Positions 6,172 to 11,663 of a DNA stretch of 64,000 bases are shown piece by piece (position 1 is the stretch's first letter; the number at the start of each line of letters is the position of its first letter). Source of the DNA: a virus; IMG/VR virus record IMGVR_UViG_3300023184_000042, positions 32,001-96,000 of that record, one strand, 5' to 3'. The notes beneath the pieces are model-generated. The model was not told the DNA's origin. It worked only from the letters and a program-made list of their open reading frames with translations, and made no database searches. A program made the translations under genes and the position numbers.

Positions 6172-6266
6172 TGCAAATTTTCTTAAAAGTAATTATCAGT
6201 TTAGTGCTTTGGTTAGTGGTAGCAAAAGTATTTTTATATTTCGGTAAAAAAATATTTAAAGATTAG
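6168..6266 (+). CDS. small single-TM protein (32 aa, not in ORF track)
   Basis: ATGA overlap; hydrophobic helix. Confidence 0.4.
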   Translation: MMQIFLKVIISLVLWLVVAKVFLYFGKKIFKD

Positions 6267-6321
6267 GATACTCCAAAAGGTTATCTTATATTTATGAAGT
6301 AATTAAAATTAAATAGTCAAT

Positions 6322-6498
6322 ATGGCAACAGTACAAAAACGTTCGAGACAATCGAGAGCATTAGATATGCTTGAAGCTCAATTAAAGAGTGGAGTAAAAA
6401 CTGAAAAGAAAACTACGGATGTAAAAATTCCTTTAACAGATTCTGATAGAAGAAGAATTGAAAAGGAAATAGAAGTCCTAAAATCTAAATTAGTTTAA
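6322..6498 (+). CDS. small basic protein (58 aa, not in ORF track)
   Basis: MATVQKRSRQSRALDMLEAQLK...; follows promoter motif at 6263-6294. Confidence 0.6.
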   Translation: MATVQKRSRQSRALDMLEAQLKSGVKTEKKTTDVKIPLTDSDRRRIEKEIEVLKSKLV

Positions 6499-6508
6499 TT
6501 TTAATTGT

Positions 6509-6907
6509 ATGGCTCTTAAGGCAGATAATAAAATTTACTTAAGTTGGGACGACGTAAGTGATTTAGTTGATACACTTTGTGAAAAGATTGTAACTGAACA
6601 ACCTCAAATTGATTCTATATTTGGAATTGCTCGAGGTGGTATGATCCCAGCAGTAATGGTATCACATAGATTAGGCTTGACCTGGTCAAATGTAATGTTA
6701 CCTAATACTCTAGTAATAGATGATATTTGTGATACAGGGCATACATTAAAAAATTGTATAGGAGGTTATACCGCAGTGTTGCATCATAAACCGCATACTG
6801 CTTGTTTAACTCCTACCATATATGCTTCACTGCATGAAGGTGATGAATGGATAATTTATCCATGGGAAAGAAATGATTCTGCACCAGTGCAAGATTATTT
6901 AAAATAA
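6509..6907 (+). CDS. purine phosphoribosyltransferase-like protein
   Basis: GIARGG, LVIDDICDTGHTL PRPP-binding loop, WIIYPWE. Confidence 0.85.
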   Translation: MALKADNKIYLSWDDVSDLVDTLCEKIVTEQPQIDSIFGIARGGMIPAVMVSHRLGLTWSNVMLPNTLVIDDICDTGHTLKNCIGGYTAVLHHKPHTACLTPTIYASLHEGDEWIIYPWERNDSAPVQDYLK

Positions 6908-6966
6908 TATAAAAAAATCGCCTGAAAATATAGCTAGGTGCATATTTATATTAAATAAAAAACAAA

Positions 6967-7113
6967 ATGACACAAGTCCATACATATCAATCACAATCGT
7001 TTAGAATGCTTCAAGGAGCAGGAGCTACAATATGTAATAATGATGTGATTTTAGGCTCTTTACGTAATGATAGTATTACATGGGAACTGAAAAATGGAGG
7101 GACTGAGGTATGA
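6967..7113 (+). CDS. putative attenuator leader peptide (48 aa) upstream of tRNA array
   Basis: MTQVHTYQSQSFRMLQGAGATICNNDVILGSLRNDSITWELKNGGTEV; 19 of 20 amino acids; A-rich start context; last codons complementary to the terminator 5' arm. Confidence 0.65.
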   Translation: MTQVHTYQSQSFRMLQGAGATICNNDVILGSLRNDSITWELKNGGTEV

Positions 7114-7142
7114 TATAGGTAATTTACATATTACTATAATTT

Positions 7143-7174
7143 AAGCCTCGGACCATAAAATCCGGGGCTTTTTT
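7143..7174 (+). terminator. intrinsic terminator / attenuator before tRNA array
   Basis: AAGCCTCGGA-ccataaaa-TCCGGGGCTT followed by a T-run. Confidence 0.85.
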
Positions 7175-7200
7175 ATTGGCCTGGTCATAAAGAATAAATT

Positions 7201-7277
7201 GCGGTGCTGGTGTTTAACGGTTAGCATATGAGTCTTCCAAACTCGAGGTAAGGGTTCGAATCCCTTGCGCCGCTCCA
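7201..7277 (+). tRNA. trnG: tRNA-Gly(TCC)
   Basis: Cloverleaf; CT-TCC-AA loop; encoded CCA. Confidence 0.92.
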
Positions 7278-7282
7278 ATATT

Positions 7283-7363
7283 GGGATGCTTCAGTCACTG
7301 GTGTGATAAGCGGTCTGTAAAATCGTTCTGTAAGAGGGTATGGTTCGATTCCATAGTGTCCCA
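7283..7363 (+). tRNA. trnY: tRNA-Tyr(GTA)
   Basis: GGGATGC/GTGTCCC; CT-GTA-AA; variable arm; atypical D arm. Confidence 0.85.
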
Positions 7364-7375
7364 CAAATATTAATT

Positions 7376-7447
7376 GGGTTGGTAGCTCAGAGGCAGAGCG
7401 GCTGTTTGTTAGGCAGCGGGTCGAGATTTCGAAATTCTCCCAGCCCT
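7376..7447 (+). tRNA. trnN: tRNA-Asn(GTT)
   Basis: GGGTTGG/CCAGCCC; TT-GTT-AG loop. Confidence 0.85.
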
Positions 7448-7453
7448 CAAAAT

Positions 7454-7524
7454 ACGCCAGTAGTGCAATGGTAGCATCTCGGTCTCCAAAACCGATGGTG
7501 GGGGTTCGAATCCCTCCTGGCGTG
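7454..7524 (+). tRNA. trnW: tRNA-Trp(CCA)
   Basis: ACGCCAG/CTGGCGT; CT-CCA-AA. Confidence 0.92.
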
Positions 7525-7555
7525 CGAATTAAGTGTGTAACGTAAATTAGAGATT

Positions 7556-8062
7556 ATGAATAAATATCAAAAAACGCTTGTCGTAGATTCAAGCTTTATG
7601 GCGAGATCTATTATTAGTGCAGAGAGAGCATTTGTGATTTCTTATAAAGGTAATGCTGAAGTTGTTTCTGAACATCCTGAAACTTTTGGATTGGTTAATC
7701 CAGAGTTAAAGATTAATAAACCTTCTATTATACGTGTTTATAAGTATGTTAAACAGCATATTCATAAAGTGCCTTTAACAAGAGAAAATGTTTATAGAAG
7801 AGACAATTTCGAATGTGTATATTGTGGATGTTCAAATATCAAGTTGCTAACTTTAGATCATGTTATACCTCAATCAAAAGGAGGTCAAAACTCTTGGGAC
7901 AATTTAGTTACTGCATGTAAATTTTGTAACTCTGAAAAGGCTGATTTAACTTTGGAAGAGTTTGGTAAGGAAATTCCCGAACCAAAAAGGCCTCATTATT
8001 TAATGTTAATGAAGCAAGTAAATTATATACCTAAAGAATGGGAGTCCTTTCTATTCTTTTAG
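7556..8062 (+). CDS. HNH endonuclease (McrA-like) inside tRNA array
   Basis: RDNFECVYCG...TLDHVIPQSKGG...NLVTACKFCN. Confidence 0.92.
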   Translation: MNKYQKTLVVDSSFMARSIISAERAFVISYKGNAEVVSEHPETFGLVNPELKINKPSIIRVYKYVKQHIHKVPLTRENVYRRDNFECVYCGCSNIKLLTLDHVIPQSKGGQNSWDNLVTACKFCNSEKADLTLEEFGKEIPEPKRPHYLMLMKQVNYIPKEWESFLFF

Positions 8063-8066
8063 AATT

Positions 8067-8136
8067 AATTGGAATTAGCTTATAGTAAAGCAGCAGGGGC
8101 TAACCTGTAGAACGGATACGAGAACCGATTCCAATT
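8067..8136 (+). ncRNA. degenerate tRNA-like element
   Basis: AATTGGAAT/ATTCCAATT closing stem; D-like GCTT/AAGC; GCAGG/CCTGT stem with 6-nt loop GGCTAA; non-canonical T arm. Confidence 0.55.
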
Positions 8137-8141
8137 AAAAT

Positions 8142-8213
8142 GCCTTGGTAGCTCAATGGTAGAGCACTTGTTTTGTAAACAAGAAGTTGCAGGTTCGAGT
8201 CCTGTCCTCGGCT
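8142..8213 (+). tRNA. trnT: tRNA-Thr(TGT)
   Basis: TT-TGT-AA loop; two acceptor-stem mismatches. Confidence 0.85.
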
Positions 8214-8219
8214 CAAAAT

Positions 8220-8293
8220 GATGATATAGCTCAATTGGTTGGAGCACCTCGCTGATACCGAGGAGGATATAGGTTCGAGTCCTATTATCATCA
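8220..8293 (+). tRNA. trnI: tRNA-Ile(GAT)
   Basis: GATGATA/TATCATC; CT-GAT-AC. Confidence 0.9.
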
Positions 8294-8304
8294 CAAATAT
8301 ACTT

Positions 8305-8380
8305 CTGGTAGTATAGGAGTCCGGTTTATCTAGCCTACCTTGGATGTAGGAGCACGCAGGTTCGAATCCTGCCTATCAGA
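8305..8380 (+). tRNA. trnP: tRNA-Pro(TGG)
   Basis: CTGGTAG/CTATCAG; CT-TGG-AT. Confidence 0.9.
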
Positions 8381-8448
8381 CAAATTTTCTTTTAAGAAGG
8401 TTAGGATTAATCAAAAGAATTCTTTATCTTTATGTAAGAAAATAATTA

Positions 8449-8519
8449 GCCCTCTAGGCTTTAAAGTGAAGCACCTAGCTTTTAACTAGGGAAAGAAGGA
8501 GCATTACCTTCAGGGGGTA
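8449..8519 (+). tRNA. trnK: tRNA-Lys(TTT), non-canonical T loop
   Basis: GCCCTCT/AGGGGGT; CCTAG-CTTTTAA-CTAGG; T loop AGCATTA. Confidence 0.75.
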
Positions 8520-8578
8520 CACAGATGAGATTGTTATTAATTCATAGAGCTACATATTGCGAGCATAGAATTAAATTT

Positions 8579-8649
8579 GCCTCGTTGGCGTAATGGAAGC
8601 GTATTTCTTTTACATGGAAATGGCAGTGGTTCGATTCCACTACGAGGTA
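8579..8649 (+). tRNA. trnV: tRNA-Val(TAC)
   Basis: GCCTCGT/ACGAGGT; TT-TAC-AT. Confidence 0.9.
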
Positions 8650-8655
8650 CAAAAT

Positions 8656-8729
8656 GTCCTTTTAGCTCAGCTGGTCAGAGCAGCTCGCTCATAACGAGAA
8701 GGTCACAGGTTCAAATCCTGTATAGGACA
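8656..8729 (+). tRNA. tRNA(CAT), Ile2 or elongator Met
   Basis: CT-CAT-AA loop; canonical arms. Confidence 0.85.
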
Positions 8730-8737
8730 CAAAAATT

Positions 8738-8809
8738 GGTCTATTGGTCCAGGGGTATGGATGTCTGCCTGTCACGTAGAAGACTCGGGTTCGAATCCCG
8801 AATAGACCG
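8738..8809 (+). tRNA. trnD: tRNA-Asp(GTC)
   Basis: GGTCTAT/ATAGACC; CT-GTC-AC; G73. Confidence 0.92.
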
Positions 8810-8848
8810 CAAATGGTTTTGAACTTTTTCTTTATGTGTTTGTTTTTG

Positions 8849-8959
8849 AGGCATTTGACTTTCCATGCCAGTTAGCTTATATGCTGTGTCATGGATACCG
8901 AAGGAAGCTGAGTAAAAATGTAAATGCCTTTATATGAGAAGCCTGGTTTCGAGCCAGGC
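8849..8959 (+). ncRNA. candidate pseudoknotted ncRNA plus hairpin
   Basis: AGGCATTT/AAATGCCT and TCCATG/CATGGA; loop TTAGCTT pairs with AAGCTGA; GCCTGG/CCAGGC hairpin. Confidence 0.5.
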
Positions 8960-8962
8960 AAT

Positions 8963-9035
8963 GGGTCTTTGGTATAGCTGGTGCGTACGTTAGTCTGAAG
9001 AACTAAAGGAGCAGGTTCGATTCCTGCAGGACCCA
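8963..9035 (+). tRNA. trnF: tRNA-Phe(GAA)
   Basis: GGGTCTT/AGGACCC; CT-GAA-GA. Confidence 0.9.
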
Positions 9036-9045
9036 CAATTTAATT

Positions 9046-9113
9046 GCCGAGTGGTCAGGGACCGGAGATGGCTCATATCTATTTCTAGAATGGCTCGATA
9101 CCATTACTCGGTA
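9046..9113 (+). tRNA. atypical tRNA(CAT) with miniature D arm and extended anticodon stem
   Basis: GCCGAGT/ACTCGGT; GGTC-AGG-GACC; GAGATGG-CTCATAT-CTATTTC; T loop CTCGATA. Confidence 0.7.
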
Positions 9114-9120
9114 CAAATTT

Positions 9121-9192
9121 TGGGTTATAGTGTAACGGTTAGCACAAATCACTTTGGCTGATTTAGTCTAGGTTCGAATCCTAGTAACCCAA
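9121..9192 (+). tRNA. trnQ: tRNA-Gln(TTG)
   Basis: TGGGTTA/TAACCCA; CT-TTG-GC. Confidence 0.92.
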
Positions 9193-9202
9193 CAAAATAC
9201 AT

Positions 9203-9276
9203 GGTGATTGTAGCTGAATTGGTAAAGCACCTGATTGTGGTTCAGGCGATTGTGGGTTCGAGTCCCACCCTTCACA
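9203..9276 (+). tRNA. trnH: tRNA-His(GTG)
   Basis: G-1; TT-GTG-GT; acceptor mismatches. Confidence 0.85.
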
Positions 9277-9285
9277 CGACGACGC

Positions 9286-9366
9286 CCAGAGGACGTAAGT
9301 CTTGGTTAGAGATTTATTCTTACAGACTCGGTACCTAAAGCTGAGCGGCTATTTGAAAGAATAGCT
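9286..9366 (+). ncRNA. candidate multi-hairpin ncRNA
   Basis: GTAA- and GAAA-capped hairpins plus CTCGGT/GCTGAG hairpin. Confidence 0.4.
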
Positions 9367-9370
9367 TTAT

Positions 9371-9458
9371 GCGCCTGTGGTGGAATGGTAGACACGTTGG
9401 ACTTAAAATCCAATCCTCAGGATTGGGGGTGCCGGTTCGAGTCCGGCCTGGCGTACCA
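9371..9458 (+). tRNA. trnL: tRNA-Leu(TAA)
   Basis: CT-TAA-AA; long variable arm; CCA. Confidence 0.92.
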
Positions 9459-9460
9459 AT

Positions 9461-9548
9461 GGAAAGTAATGCAACTAGGAGTTGTCACTGTTTGCTAAAC
9501 AAGTGGTCCGGGAAACTGGATAGGGTTCGATACCTTTGCTTTCCTCCA
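9461..9548 (+). tRNA. trnS: tRNA-Ser(GCT)
   Basis: GGAAAGT/GCTTTCC; TT-GCT-AA; long variable arm; CCA; irregular stems. Confidence 0.8.
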
Positions 9549-9556
9549 TAATAAAT

Positions 9557-9629
9557 GCCTCTATAGCATAAATGGAAATGCAACATCCTTCTAAGATGTT
9601 AAATGGAGATTCGAATTCTTCTAGGGGTA
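9557..9629 (+). tRNA. trnR: tRNA-Arg(TCT)
   Basis: GCCTCTA/TAGGGGT; CT-TCT-AA. Confidence 0.9.
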
Positions 9630-9639
9630 CAATAAGAAA

Positions 9640-9746
9640 CAGAGTAAAGCCTGGACAGCGAAAGCAGGGTAGTTTTTAACTTGGACAGTTTCTTTTAGCA
9701 GTTTAAGAGTCAGAGCTGACTTCTGCTTATCAAAAATGCTCTGCCA
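9640..9746 (+). ncRNA. candidate four-way-junction ncRNA ending in CCA
   Basis: CAGAGTA/TGCTCTG closing stem then CCA; three internal hairpins; TGGACAG occurs twice. Confidence 0.45.
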
Positions 9747-9748
9747 CT

Positions 9749-9822
9749 GCCCGAGTAGCCGAATTGGTATAGGCGCTAGACTTAGGATCTAGATTTTGCG
9801 AGTTCGAGTCTCGCCTTGGGTA
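9749..9822 (+). tRNA. trnL: tRNA-Leu(TAG) lacking long variable arm
   Basis: GCCCGAG/CTTGGGT; CT-TAG-GA; 5-nt variable loop. Confidence 0.88.
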
Positions 9823-9828
9823 CAAAAT

Positions 9829-9900
9829 GCTCTTATAGTTTAATTGGAAAAACGTTTGGCTACGGACCAGATGATATAGGTTCGAGTCCTATTAGGAGTT
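9829..9900 (+). tRNA. trnR: tRNA-Arg(ACG)
   Basis: GCTCTTA/TAGGAGT; CT-ACG-GA. Confidence 0.9.
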
Positions 9901-9907
9901 CAATAAT

Positions 9908-9978
9908 GGCGTGATGACCGAATGGTTAGGTGCAGGTCTGCAAAACCTGTTATGCTGGTTCGATTCCAGCTCGCGCCT
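9908..9978 (+). tRNA. trnC: tRNA-Cys(GCA)
   Basis: GGCGTGA/TCGCGCC; CT-GCA-AA; U73. Confidence 0.92.
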
Positions 9979-10044
9979 CAAAATAATTTTAAATAATATT
10001 AGGTTCCTCCAAAAGGGTATCTTATATTTATGAAGAATTAAAAG

Positions 10045-10134
10045 GGAAGGTTGGCAGAGTTGGTCTATTGCACCGGTCTTGAAAACCGGAGAGCGTGTAA
10101 AAGCGCTCCGTGGGTTCGAATCCCACATCTTCCT
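10045..10134 (+). tRNA. trnS: tRNA-Ser(TGA)
   Basis: GGAAGGT/ATCTTCC; CT-TGA-AA; long variable arm. Confidence 0.92.
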
Positions 10135-10140
10135 CAAATT

Positions 10141-10212
10141 GGCCCTATCGACTATCGGTTAGGTCGTCAGGTTTTCATCCTGGAAAGTCGGGTTCGATTC
10201 CCGGTGGGGCTA
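10141..10212 (+). tRNA. trnE: tRNA-Glu(TTC)
   Basis: GGCCCTA/TGGGGCT; TT-TTC-AT. Confidence 0.92.
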
Positions 10213-10220
10213 CAAAAAAA

Positions 10221-10292
10221 GGGGTTATAGTGAAATTGGCATCACGATAGATTTGCATTCTGTTATTCCGAGTTCGAGTCTCGGTAGCTCCA
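10221..10292 (+). tRNA. trnA: tRNA-Ala(TGC)
   Basis: GGGGTTA/TAGCTCC with G3:U70; TT-TGC-AT. Confidence 0.92.
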
Positions 10293-10326
10293 CTAATTTA
10301 TTAACAAATACTAAATATTATCTATT

Positions 10327-11238
10327 ATGAAAAATTCATTATCTACTAAAGGGTTATCTTTGTCTCAAGCACAATCAATCTCTAATTTGTGTAACCAGAG
10401 ATCTATCGAATTGTCTAATACATTGTCAGATGTTAATAACGTTGAAAAGACGTTGACAATTGGTTCTGACACTTATATTGAAACTCCAGCAAAACCTTTA
10501 CCAGGTAACGTAGCTGAGTTAATTCAAGAAAAAGCGAGACTTGCTGCTACTCAAGCTTTTTTAATGGAAAATATCAAAGCGAAAGATTCTTTGATTAAGT
10601 CTATTCAAAAAGAGCAATATTATGCTTCAGCTCCGAGACCAACGTCTCCAGAGTATGTTGAAATTGATTTAAAAGAACTTGTTTCTGAAGAGTGGGCATG
10701 GAATGAATTATCAGCTGCTGAGTATAATGAATTTTTAGAAGCGGAGGCTTATGCAGCGCACATCGGTCAATTTATCCATAAAGGAGGAACTTTAGATCGT
10801 TTAAGAACAGAATTGCCAAAAATTAAAACTTTGGAATTCATGGAAATTGAAACAGGAAAGAAAACTCCTATGAAAGTAGCAGTTCATCACACTTCCGCTC
10901 AATTGCTTTCAATACATGAAGAGTTAGCAAATACTCATAGAGAGTATGAGCAAAAAGTAAATTACTTCAAGTCAAAAGTAAAAAATGCTGTGACTAAAGA
11001 AAATGCTCGAATTGCAAATGAAAATGCCGATGTAGTAGCAAAGGCAAATGAAACTAACCAAACTTTGCGAGACGAATTCAGAAAGTTAAATGAAGAATGG
11101 AACGCTTTCGTAAGAAAAGAAACTCAAGAATTTGAGGCTAAACGCCAAGGAAGAATTGAAGCTGCAGTGTCTCTTAAAATAGACGTTGCTCCTAGATTCC
11201 AACCAGTAGTGGATGAGTTTCTTAAAACAATAAAATAG
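10327..11238 (+). CDS. all-helical/coiled-coil protein of unknown function, paired with downstream ncRNA
   Basis: 303 aa; A/E/K-rich heptads; no recognised catalytic motif. Confidence 0.8.
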   Translation: MKNSLSTKGLSLSQAQSISNLCNQRSIELSNTLSDVNNVEKTLTIGSDTYIETPAKPLPGNVAELIQEKARLAATQAFLMENIKAKDSLIKSIQKEQYYASAPRPTSPEYVEIDLKELVSEEWAWNELSAAEYNEFLEAEAYAAHIGQFIHKGGTLDRLRTELPKIKTLEFMEIETGKKTPMKVAVHHTSAQLLSIHEELANTHREYEQKVNYFKSKVKNAVTKENARIANENADVVAKANETNQTLRDEFRKLNEEWNAFVRKETQEFEAKRQGRIEAAVSLKIDVAPRFQPVVDEFLKTIK

Positions 11239-11590: not shown

Positions 11591-11663
11591 CGCGGGGTAG
11601 TGTAAGGGTAGCACGAAGGGCTCATAACCCTAAAGTTCGGTTCGAATCCGGCGACCGCTACCA
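11591..11663 (+). tRNA. initiator tRNA-fMet(CAT)
   Basis: C1 mismatch; GGG/CCC anticodon stem; CT-CAT-AA; CCA; irregular acceptor/T junction. Confidence 0.8.

Follow-up and report, generated by a model that had tools for sequence, protein, structure and literature searches.

The tRNA array in the analysed window, a 64,000-nucleotide stretch of phage DNA, is probably preceded by a ribosome-mediated transcription attenuator whose leader peptide forms a near-complete "pangram" of amino acids and of most isoacceptor classes, a reading that we base on sequence comparison. The leader open reading frame (ORF) occupies positions 6967 to 7113 of the plus strand (48 codons, ATG start, TGA stop) and encodes 48 amino acids of 19 types. 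An intrinsic terminator follows at 7143 to 7177, and the first tRNA gene (Gly-UCC) starts at 7201, 26 nt past position 7174. The segment has the parts of a leader attenuator, namely, an ORF between a promoter-like box and the tRNA genes, a terminator 3' of the ORF, and a competing antiterminator strand near the ORF end. All coordinates proposed in the sequence-only reading, including this order of a 48-codon ORF, terminator, and first tRNA, were confirmed on re-computation.

The promoter-like box P1, CATATTTATATTAAATAAAA (6941 to 6960, plus strand), ends 6 nt 5' of the leader ATG and is a variant of the Bacteroidota -7 element TAnnTTTG/A. Exact copies of this 20-mer occur at four plus-strand sites of the 132-kb record, and allowing up to 4 mismatches yields 16 sites, 15 of them on the plus strand and mostly 24 to 41 nt before an ATG. 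Of 52 unique relatives, 45 likewise have a P1-like box no more than 90 nt 5' of the leader start codon, and we infer that P1 is a promoter. The label "late promoter" could not be established, as only one of five motif-carrying genes scanned gave a match, a weak one, to a virion protein. The window leader matched 0 families in PHROGs, and a Pfam search with four leaders gave nothing at or near the cut-offs (best match, zf-C4_ClpX, 12.9 bits versus a cut-off of 27). Inside the ORF, folding of the segment before the terminator 3' arm predicts a plus-strand hairpin at 7051 to 7090; similar hairpins are predicted within the ORFs of relatives L091, L093, and L095. This hairpin may possibly serve as an RNA polymerase pause site or "1:2" element.

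The terminator (plus strand) consists of a 10-bp stem (7143 to 7152 with 7161 to 7170, six G-C pairs), an 8-nt loop, and the tail TTTTATT. Its 5' arm is also the partner of the last ORF codons: the antiterminator 5' strand GGACTGAGGT (7100 to 7109, plus strand; core CUGAGGU at 7103 to 7109) pairs with GCCTCGGACC (7145 to 7154) at 9 of 10 positions, as originally claimed, with seven Watson-Crick pairs, two G-U pairs, and one A-A mismatch. The inner AT-rich hairpin GGUAAU/AUUACU (7114 to 7138, plus strand), described in the sequence-only reading as extending this alternative structure, stacks under the antiterminator helix and contains a family-wide ACATAT element, which recurs in similar form in the alignment of relatives. 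Both helices are part of the minimum-energy fold of 7090 to 7185 predicted by RNAfold (-26.2 kcal/mol, z = -2.75, 4 of 200 shuffles as good). The composite antiterminator (7099 to 7154, -16.0 kcal/mol) and the terminator (-15.5 kcal/mol) are about equal in predicted energy. Pairing was judged from duplex energies, with shuffled, swapped, and permuted partners for comparison. For the window, the duplex of 7100 to 7109 with 7145 to 7154 reached -11.3 kcal/mol (z = -2.8, P = 0.02, 200 shuffles), and 4 of 20 swapped ORF tails bound its terminator arm better than its own. An Rfam scan of 6300 to 10800 at E values up to 1 found only tRNAs above the gathering score and no T-box; the best non-tRNA match in 7115 to 7184 was Yfr10 (27.2 bits versus a cut-off of 43, E = 0.53).

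In the proposed mechanism, transcription would start at the 6941 to 6960 box, and the leader would be translated at once, in a coupled manner. A ribosome reaching the last codons or the stop would cover 7100 to 7109, which would leave the terminator free to fold and would be expected to end transcription. A ribosome lagging or stalled up to about codon 42 would instead let 7100 to 7109 pair with 7145 to 7154 first, no terminator would form, and RNA polymerase would enter tRNA-Gly and the genes beyond. The latest first appearance of any amino acid type in the window leader is at codon 42, and slow decoding of almost any codon class would therefore raise tRNA transcription. The signal could be loss of tRNAs (through host-defence cleavage or host tRNA decay), amino acid starvation, or another slowing of translation, causes that look alike in the sequence.

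The window leader draws on 33 different codons, which reach 23 of the 24 elongator decoding classes; Pro is the sole missing amino acid, as had been noted from the sequence. As a control, 100,000 windows of 48 codons were drawn in frame from 149 long ORFs in the 132-kb record. Among these, at least 19 amino acid types were reached with P = 0.054 and at least 23 classes with P = 0.0008 under strict and 0.0027 under lenient wobble rules, a statistic picked after the ORF had been seen in the first reading. Coverage of the window leader is therefore above chance, with 0.08 to 0.27% of random windows reaching 23 of 24 classes, as the earlier proposal supposed. The lack of Pro is peculiar to this record. 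At codon 41, the window reads CTG and all eight related loci read CCG; the codon encodes Pro in 10 of 10 database peptides, and position 7088 within it is C in contigs from all four RNA libraries that were aligned to the window.

Relatives were sampled via the flanking PRTase gene, the HNH gene within the array, and a DNA motif, never via the leader ORF. The PRTase route gave 77 loci, with the array adjoining in 3. Among 18 loci found by the HNH route, 11 had the first detected tRNA within the fetched DNA, and 9 of these 11 carried an ORF of 40 to 47 codons upstream, followed by a terminator in 7 cases by a strict scan and in 9 of 9 by a refined scan. The 16-nt anchoring motif before the first tRNA retrieved 80 loci. 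All routes pooled, we obtained 65 family members with 53 unique leader peptides, counts that include L119, which is probably no family member; since the members are related, sequence counts overstate the number of independent events.

In 64 of the 65 family members, the leader is followed by a terminator, the 5' arm of which occurs in at least 17 different sequences, and the order of promoter-like box, ORF, terminator, and tRNA holds in 64 of 65, the promoter being assigned from its motif. The spacer between stop codon and terminator measures 20 to 37 nt in all 52 unique relatives. A frame of 33 to 53 codons stays open in the 53 unique variants in AT-rich DNA, and leader indels are in frame (-3 nt in L091 and L092, +6 nt in L089 and L090). 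The leader is absent from five arrays behind the anchoring motif (L118, L139, L143, L157, and L177). Among the cultured phages of INPHARED, a tblastn search with the clade-B leader peptide gave no match at E values up to 1, and the motif region matched tRNAs only. By PRTase, the closest relative in culture is Flavobacterium phage immuto, in which three tRNAs follow a 51-amino-acid ORF and no terminator is visible. Of 24 sequencing runs found, six were RNA labelled, and contigs of four of these were aligned to the window. One contig from RNA library X13 covers 6300 to 7309, crossing the terminator and reaching tRNA-Gly and tRNA-Tyr, and contigs from X19 and X21 extend past about 7190 into the insert form of L089/L091; such contigs show neither ends, strand, nor level, and DNA carry-over is possible.

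The repertoire of the leader is kept while its peptide diverges. In the 45 unique leaders of at least 44 residues, all 20 amino acids occur in 38, 19 in 6, and 18 in 1, against a background for all 20 of 0.8% at 44 residues, 1.4% at 47, and 3.0% at 53. Grouping leaders of this length by identity, 8 of 9 clusters at 50% and 4 of 5 at 35% have a member with all 20 types. The leader pN/pS is 0.63 to 0.91 in clade B and about 0.3 to 1.4 in clade A, where counts are small, and that of the neighbouring PRTase gene is about 0.15 to 0.2 in most comparisons. The prediction of a short ORF with a diverse repertoire despite a divergent peptide thus held among the relatives. In clade B, each of the 29 peptides has exactly one His, at position 8 or else at 10, 12, 14, or 42, and Trp is found at positions 20 to 22, 24, 26, or 32; these single residues were relocated, not lost. 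Simulated neutral drift to 30 to 40% divergence retained all 20 types in about 9 to 12% of trials, compared with the 26 of 29 observed in clade B. Judged by these comparisons, selection acts on the amino acid repertoire rather than on the peptide sequence. Together with the preserved frame and the in-frame indels, this selection lends indirect support to translation of the leader.

At the level of isoacceptors, the 45 leaders contain TTR-Leu in 45, CTN-Leu in 44, TCN-Ser in 45, AGY-Ser in 45, and ATA in 44 cases. A CGN-Arg codon is found in 18 of 45 and an internal Met in 26 of 45. The initial statement that the leader polls almost every tRNA therefore stands for the amino acids and for the Leu, Ser, and Ile isoacceptor pairs but not for CGN-Arg and internal Met. 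As a separate observation, leader codons are biased to NNG in four-fold boxes (31.5% versus 6.9%); this bias was set aside as evidence because of the relatedness of the sequences and because the pairing segments coincide in part with G/C-rich codons.

Short leaders fit the smaller tRNA blocks behind them. Every amino acid of the block is present in the leaders of L113 (8/8), L140 (5/5), L115 (9/9), L104 (13/13), and L189 (15/15), with a combined P of 0.0015. What short leaders lack are exactly those amino acids whose tRNAs the block behind lacks, for example, C, D, E, K, P, T, and Y in L113 (P = 3e-5) and A, E, and G in L104 (P = 1e-3). The same lineage carries its Glu, Ala, Asp, and Gly tRNAs in a second block, behind a separate 24-codon leader and terminator, and this second leader contains A, G, E, D, and M. 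With the exception of CGN-Arg and internal Met, leader codons thus match the tRNAs they are proposed to regulate, both in the window (23 of 24 classes) and in the short leaders with their blocks.

Pairing of ORF tail and terminator arm extends to the relatives. The best duplex between the ORF tail and its own terminator 5' arm has a mean z of -2.6 relative to shuffles over 52 unique tails, with 79% below -1.64. Summed over 20 lineages whose arms differ, the energy is -211.8 kcal/mol for own pairs and -151.0 kcal/mol for permuted pairs, and 0 of 100,000 permutations were as good; the co-variation between relatives on which the first proposal depended is thus found. A compensatory change is visible between L093 and L095 (GATTTGGG/CCCAAATC against GATCTGGG/CCCGGATC). 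The partner strand ends at most 17 nt from the stop codon in 46 of 52 cases, within reach of a terminating ribosome. It lies 23 to 47 nt before the stop in the other six (L100, L104, L113, L128, L140, and L189), where a terminating ribosome would therefore leave it uncovered and the geometry must differ. In 10 representatives with a partner strand at most 17 nt from the stop, no amino acid type is confined to the last 6 codons. Pairing is weak in L089/L090 (5 bp, P = 0.14), L098/L099 (P = 0.10 and 0.40), and L108 (P = 0.125). A single consensus structure for the tail/arm helix did not fit alignment A4 (39 sequences) because the helix register differs between clades.

Behind the terminator, default ARAGORN detected 21 tRNA genes and Rfam added one; relaxed ARAGORN found 24 in the plus-strand array (7201 to 10293) plus one near 11594, in all 25 tRNAs for all 20 amino acids. 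The first part of the array (7201 to 8381, plus strand) comprises seven tRNA genes, Gly, Tyr, Asn, Trp, Thr, Ile, and Pro, and an HNH endonuclease ORF (7556 to 8062). A promoter pattern scan of 7175 to 8400 gave a single weak match at 7924, within the HNH ORF, and we infer that the genes in 7201 to 8381 depend on read-through. Further downstream, the internal promoter motifs that the sequence-only reading had mentioned were re-found as promoter-like boxes on the plus strand, TTAGG-N19-TATCTTTA at 8401 to 8433, just 5' of tRNA-Lys (8449), and TTAGG-N19-TATATTTA at 10002 to 10031, just 5' of tRNA-Ser (10045); both share one form with a box near 6266. Another motif, TTGACATATTGG, was rejected as an array promoter, as its 24-nt spacing to tRNA position +1 fits neither a sigma-70 nor a Bacteroidota promoter.

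A host-type promoter often lies between terminator and first tRNA: the pattern TTG-N17-21-TAnnTT[TA][GA] occurs there in 30 of 52 unique relatives, 2 of these matches being false as they fall inside a tRNA gene, and several further relatives have a similar promoter by eye. In such relatives, the attenuator can only add to a separate promoter. The attenuator architecture of the original proposal was upheld, but its wording that the leader controls the array is too strong, since most relatives have this promoter 3' of the terminator and the window has internal boxes. In the window, L083, L085, and L088, a promoter and leader segment that follows the terminator in other relatives has been lost. 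Because these natural deletion carriers keep intact arrays, their sequences suggest that read-through can supply tRNAs.

Other explanations of the locus have to account for the same observations. The ORF could simply encode a small phage protein of the ordinary kind and have a promoter and terminator to itself, with the tRNAs transcribed from other promoters or by terminator leakage and the composition and complementarity arising as by-products. Such a protein would explain why the frame is kept in 53 unique variants with in-frame indels, why parts of the clade-B peptide are conserved (e.g., SIWSDSLCGDV and NNEPK), and why most relatives have a promoter-like box behind the terminator. It would, however, leave unexplained a clade-B pN/pS far above that of the neighbouring gene, single residues that shift position rather than stay conserved, all 20 types in 38 of 45 leaders against a 1 to 3% background, short leaders that track the content of the tRNA block, and an ORF tail that co-varies with the terminator arm, and the ORF has no protein-family match; we regard this explanation as unlikely. 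That the stretch of about 215 nt from P1 through the terminator is a small RNA or an insulator, whose hairpins stabilise the 3' end and protect the downstream promoter while the frame plays no regulatory part, appears very improbable. The identity of 7114 to 7174 among the window, L083, L085, L088, and L084, in which PRTase synonymous sites differ by 14 to 21% from the window, would fit such a unit, as would the terminator directly upstream of a promoter in many relatives. This reading would not account for a 33- to 53-codon frame maintained through 53 variants and in-frame indels in AT-rich DNA or for an ORF composition that follows the tRNA blocks, and the unit has no Rfam match.

It is unlikely that the switch responds to the general rate of translation or to its initiation (as under ribosome shut-off, antibiotics, or host takeover) and not to single tRNAs or amino acids, in which case the pangram would not be the sensing principle. 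In the predicted geometry, the antiterminator forms by default whenever the ribosome lags, whatever the cause, and many translation inhibitors reportedly trigger the known upstream ORF (uORF) sensors toiL, bmrB, and the vmlR leader. Sensing of general speed leaves unexplained the complete repertoire, its retention through relocations, and its fit to the tRNA block. The pangram attenuator, in which single codon classes are polled, is the reading that we prefer.

Leader-peptide attenuators are well known from amino acid operons (trpL, hisL, leuL, and pheL, the last being the subject of PMC3082878, and the multivalent thr and ilvGMEDA leaders). The phage locus resembles them in its short ORF between promoter and genes, its intrinsic terminator, and a ribosome-coverable strand that competes for the terminator 5' arm; earlier stalling is likewise predicted to favour read-through. 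It differs in that the targets are tRNAs instead of biosynthetic enzymes, that the 44- to 53-codon leader has about one or more codons for each of the 20 amino acids and no run of a regulatory codon, and that it belongs to phages of Bacteroidota-type hosts, often with a second promoter after the terminator. T-box riboswitches bind uncharged tRNA directly and need no ORF. They and the proposed attenuator both tie a terminator/antiterminator decision to tRNA status, but a leader ORF is present only in the latter. Among the uORF sensors, toiL reportedly acts through Rho and not through an intrinsic terminator.

The systems bmrB-bmrCD (PMC4191407), the vmlR leader (PMC9226507), and toiL of topAI-yjhQ (PMC12121999) are reported to be ones in which a uORF reports impaired translation and stalling relieves premature termination. 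The phage leader shares with them the use of a uORF as a general translation reporter in which stalls at different positions count; in contrast, no match between leader composition and a tRNA set is reported for them, and the targets there are resistance or toxin genes. The trn operon of Anabaena sp. PCC 7120 is a long tRNA array induced under translational stress and controlled by the repressor TrcR, which acts on direct repeats in the promoter (PMC8421152 and PMC10272220); the terms "leader," "attenuat," and "terminator" are absent from the main text of PMC8421152. The proposed phage switch is similar in that an accessory tRNA array is turned on by impaired translation and different in that trn relies on TrcR. 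A full-text literature search found no published account of such a leader attenuator before a tRNA array.

To our knowledge, little has been established about how phages regulate their tRNA genes. Defences that act by destroying host tRNAs can be neutralised by tRNAs of the phage, as recent work has shown (e.g., PMC11555353). We see about an even chance that phages of Bacteroidota-type hosts carry a whole class of "decoding-capacity sensors," in which each tRNA block lies behind a block-matched pangram leader and switch that deliver tRNAs on demand, when any cognate codon is decoded slowly. If true, this could be a built-in counter to tRNA-cleaving host immunity and host tRNA decay; it would also be the first known case of RNA genes under leader-peptide attenuation and a new attenuation logic, in which many single codons do what a run of one codon does elsewhere. 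A leader composition that mirrors the tRNA block would provide a sequence signature for finding such switches in viral metagenomes, and the leader/block rule could predict which tRNAs are co-transcribed. The family is large, with the anchoring motif in at least 120 viral contigs, and the switch may be at work in dozens of related uncultured phages.

The leader, a 48-residue ORF on the plus strand (6967-7113) of the analyzed stretch (bases 32001-96000 of a 132,303-bp IMG/VR virus record estimated to be 70% complete), is followed on the same strand by a G/C-rich terminator stem-loop with a 10-bp stem and a T-tract after it (7143-7170) and by tRNA-Gly, the first array gene, for which ARAGORN gave a start at 7201. 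Relaxed ARAGORN searches yielded 24 plus-strand tRNAs up to 10293 and another near 11594, which together cover all 20 amino acids. Between the final ORF codons (7100-7109) and the terminator 5' arm (7145-7154), 9 of 10 positions pair, including two G-U pairs, and the predicted minimum-energy fold of 7090-7185 consists of this helix plus an inner hairpin (z = -2.75). Predicted energies of the alternative structure and the terminator are matched (-16.0 versus -15.5 kcal/mol). The arrangement of leader ORF, alternative pairing, and terminator before the first tRNA described in the sequence-only reading was thus confirmed in the window. Its expectation that codon-class coverage exceeds that of random windows also held, as 23 of 24 elongator decoding classes are present. 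When 100,000 in-frame windows of 48 codons were drawn at random from the record, this coverage was reached in 0.08% under strict and 0.27% under lenient wobble rules.

The window leader lacks Pro solely because of a T at 7088, which turns codon 41 into CTG (Leu). All related loci carry C at this position (CCG, Pro), all database peptides have Pro, and contigs from four RNA libraries show C; the T is either private to this record or an artifact of assembly. The array also harbors an HNH endonuclease gene (7556-8062), which has counterparts of 73 to 89% identity in the tRNA arrays of 18 further viral contigs.

Relatives were collected without regard to the leader ORF, using the PRTase gene that flanks the leader upstream, the HNH gene, and a 16-nt motif before the first tRNA. 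The PRTase route gave 77 viral loci, with the array adjoining PRTase in the three closest only, and the HNH route led to large arrays at 18 loci. Of the 11 HNH loci whose first detected tRNA lay inside the fetched DNA, 9 have an ORF of 40 to 47 codons ahead of this tRNA, with a terminator after each ORF. The 16-nt motif matched at least 120 viral contigs; 80 of them, with 82 motif sites, were analyzed. At 40 sites, an ARAGORN tRNA follows directly, with leader and terminator upstream; five have a tRNA and no leader, three had too little upstream DNA, and 34 have no ARAGORN tRNA within 45 nt, with the leader still present in ten. Using the leader peptide itself as the query added ten database proteins at 83 to 96% identity and five more metagenome loci. 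In total, the family set comprises 65 members with 53 unique peptides.

In two related loci, L091 and L092, PRTase shares only 53 to 56% identity with that of the window, compared with about 90% nucleotide identity for the leader module. The leader moves with the tRNA array and not with the upstream gene, which points to mosaic exchange. Many arrays of related loci carry a motif of about 30 nt with the core TTCATTGACATATTGG that ends about 8 to 12 nt before the first tRNA (L095:1296-1326, L098:3368-3396, and L084:3484-3514, among others). The tRNA that follows usually decodes Ser or Leu; in clade A, to which the window belongs, it decodes Gly. The motif is absent from the window, and its spacing is unsuitable for a known promoter. 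Between the post-terminator promoter and this motif, L099:988-1108 and the matching part of L093 give a 121-nt tRNA-model match (32.7 bits) without an ARAGORN call, possibly a tRNA gene interrupted by a long insertion.

The relatives retain a short ORF with a diverse repertoire despite divergent peptides, as would be expected of a leader that polls many tRNAs. Of the 45 unique leaders with 44 or more residues, 38 contain all 20 amino acids, six contain 19, and one contains 18, against a 20-type background of 0.8% (44 residues), 1.4% (47), and 3.0% (53) in random long-ORF windows of the same contigs. Other small ORFs contained 20 types in 19 of 1665 cases, about half of which proved to be more family members. 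When these leaders were clustered, completeness held in 8 of 9 clusters at 50% identity and in 4 of 5 at 35% identity; the peptides of L134, L153, L174, and L160, for example, share almost nothing beyond completeness. Leader pN/pS is 0.63 to 0.91 in clade B and about 0.3 to 1.4, from few changes, in the window's clade; that of the neighboring PRTase is about 0.15 to 0.2 in most comparisons. Leader indels keep the frame. Each of the 29 clade-B peptides contains exactly one His, which, when not at position 8, is found at 10, 12, 14, or 42 every time, and the position of Trp shifts likewise. Neutral-drift simulations at the observed divergence retained 20 types in about one-tenth of runs versus 26 of 29 observed, a comparison that is only indicative given the kinship of the sequences. 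Selection thus appears to target the amino-acid repertoire and not the peptide sequence.

Leaders of 33 to 45 codons carry 13 to 18 types and precede smaller tRNA blocks, whose amino acids were all found in the respective leader (8/8, 5/5, 9/9, 13/13, and 15/15; combined P = 0.0015). The amino acids missing from short leaders are very unlikely to be absent by chance, as in the 35-residue leader of locus L113, which lacks C, D, E, K, P, T, and Y (P = 3e-5). In one lineage, Ala, Glu, and Gly are absent from the first leader, and the corresponding tRNAs lie in a second block with its own leader and terminator (L101:6985-7120; L109:4890-5030). This second leader, MQTLNILLTIAGTEGRDTTWKQMV (24 codons), supplies the amino acids missing from the first. 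It lies about 300 to 430 nt upstream of a sub-block starting with tRNA-Glu (Glu, Asp, Met, and Gly in L101; Glu, Ala, and Asp in L109). The intervening DNA carries two promoter-like boxes and an acidic ORF, 36 aa long in L101 and 70 aa long in L109. The proposal that the leader polls almost every tRNA stood for isoacceptors of Leu and Ser (both classes of each) and for ATA, each present in 44 to 45 of the 45 leaders, but not for CGN-Arg codons (18/45) or internal Met (26/45).

Codon use in the 45 unique leaders with 44 or more codons differs from that of long ORFs on the same contigs, with G-ending codons making up 31.5% versus 6.9% of four-fold boxes (4.6 times); CCG accounts for 80% of Pro and TCG for 62% of TCN codons. 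In two-fold sets, T-ending codons are preferred over C-ending ones more strongly than in the background. These biases could favor wobble-read, slowly decoded codons or reflect RNA-pairing needs.

Downstream of the leader, 64 of the 65 members have a terminator, whose stem differs in sequence between many of them. When the last 45 nt of the ORF plus the spacer were searched against the terminator 5' arm, the best predicted duplex had a mean z of -2.6 versus shuffles, with 79% below -1.64 (52 unique cases). This antiterminator pairing covaries between lineages: among 20 lineages with differing arms, own tail/arm pairs gave -211.8 versus -151.0 kcal/mol for permuted pairs, and 0 of 100,000 permutations were as good. 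L093 and L095 differ by a compensatory A-T to G-C exchange. Pairing is weak in some lineages (L089, L098, L099, and L108), and four of the 20 tails bind better than the window's own. The partner strand ends at most 17 nt from the stop in 46 of 52 cases and 23 to 47 nt upstream of it in six. In ten representatives of the former kind, a subgroup chosen after the data had been seen, no amino-acid type is limited to the last six codons, which fits stalls there being uninformative.

The 20 bases at 6941-6960, a promoter-like box on which the sequence-only reading did not draw, have three further exact plus-strand copies and about a dozen more with few mismatches, nearly all 24 to 41 nt upstream of an ATG. 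Since the equivalent box in relatives, TTG-N20-TATATTTA, has the Bacteroidota-type promoter form, we infer the order promoter, leader ORF, hairpins, terminator, and tRNAs, with a putative transcription start at this box. A second promoter-like cassette, TTAGG-N19-TAT(C/A)TTTA, recurs in the window (6266-6297, 8401-8433, and 10002-10031) and also occurs directly downstream of the leader terminator in relatives. RNA-library contigs span the terminator, although transcripts and DNA carry-over are inseparable in contigs. Close relatives carry an insert of 290 to 370 nt between terminator and tRNA-Gly (L084:3175-3490; L089 and L091:3180-3570) that opens with a promoter-like box; its G/C-rich segments may be structured, and Rfam returned no family at gathering score. 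The insert is absent from the window, L083, L085, and L088.

An Rfam scan did not support a T-box riboswitch at the locus, the leader peptide matched no protein family, and full-text literature searches turned up nothing on the control of phage tRNA genes by a leader peptide or attenuator. Among printed cases of a tRNA array that responds to translational stress by induction, the nearest is the trn operon of Anabaena, which is controlled by the TrcR repressor. The architecture has the sequence-level hallmarks of a putative leader-peptide attenuator, and the comparative evidence supports the attenuator reading proposed for the window. We consider it fairly probable that the leader acts as a ribosome-mediated attenuator that samples the amino acids decoded by the downstream array.

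How far such an attenuator would control the array depends on the locus. In most relatives, a canonical host-type promoter lies downstream of the terminator, followed by a conserved leader segment and the first tRNA (30 of 52 matched this pattern, two of them falsely; further relatives look alike by eye). At such loci, attenuated read-through can do no more than supplement that promoter, an arrangement that would be akin to tandem promoters of which one is regulated. This promoter/leader segment is deleted in the window, L083, L085, and L088. Control of the whole array, as originally proposed, is limited in the window by the boxes near 8401 and 10002, which can feed the remaining array, but the sole promoter-like match belonging to the first seven tRNAs (7201-8381) is a weak one, which makes them the clearest case where read-through should matter.
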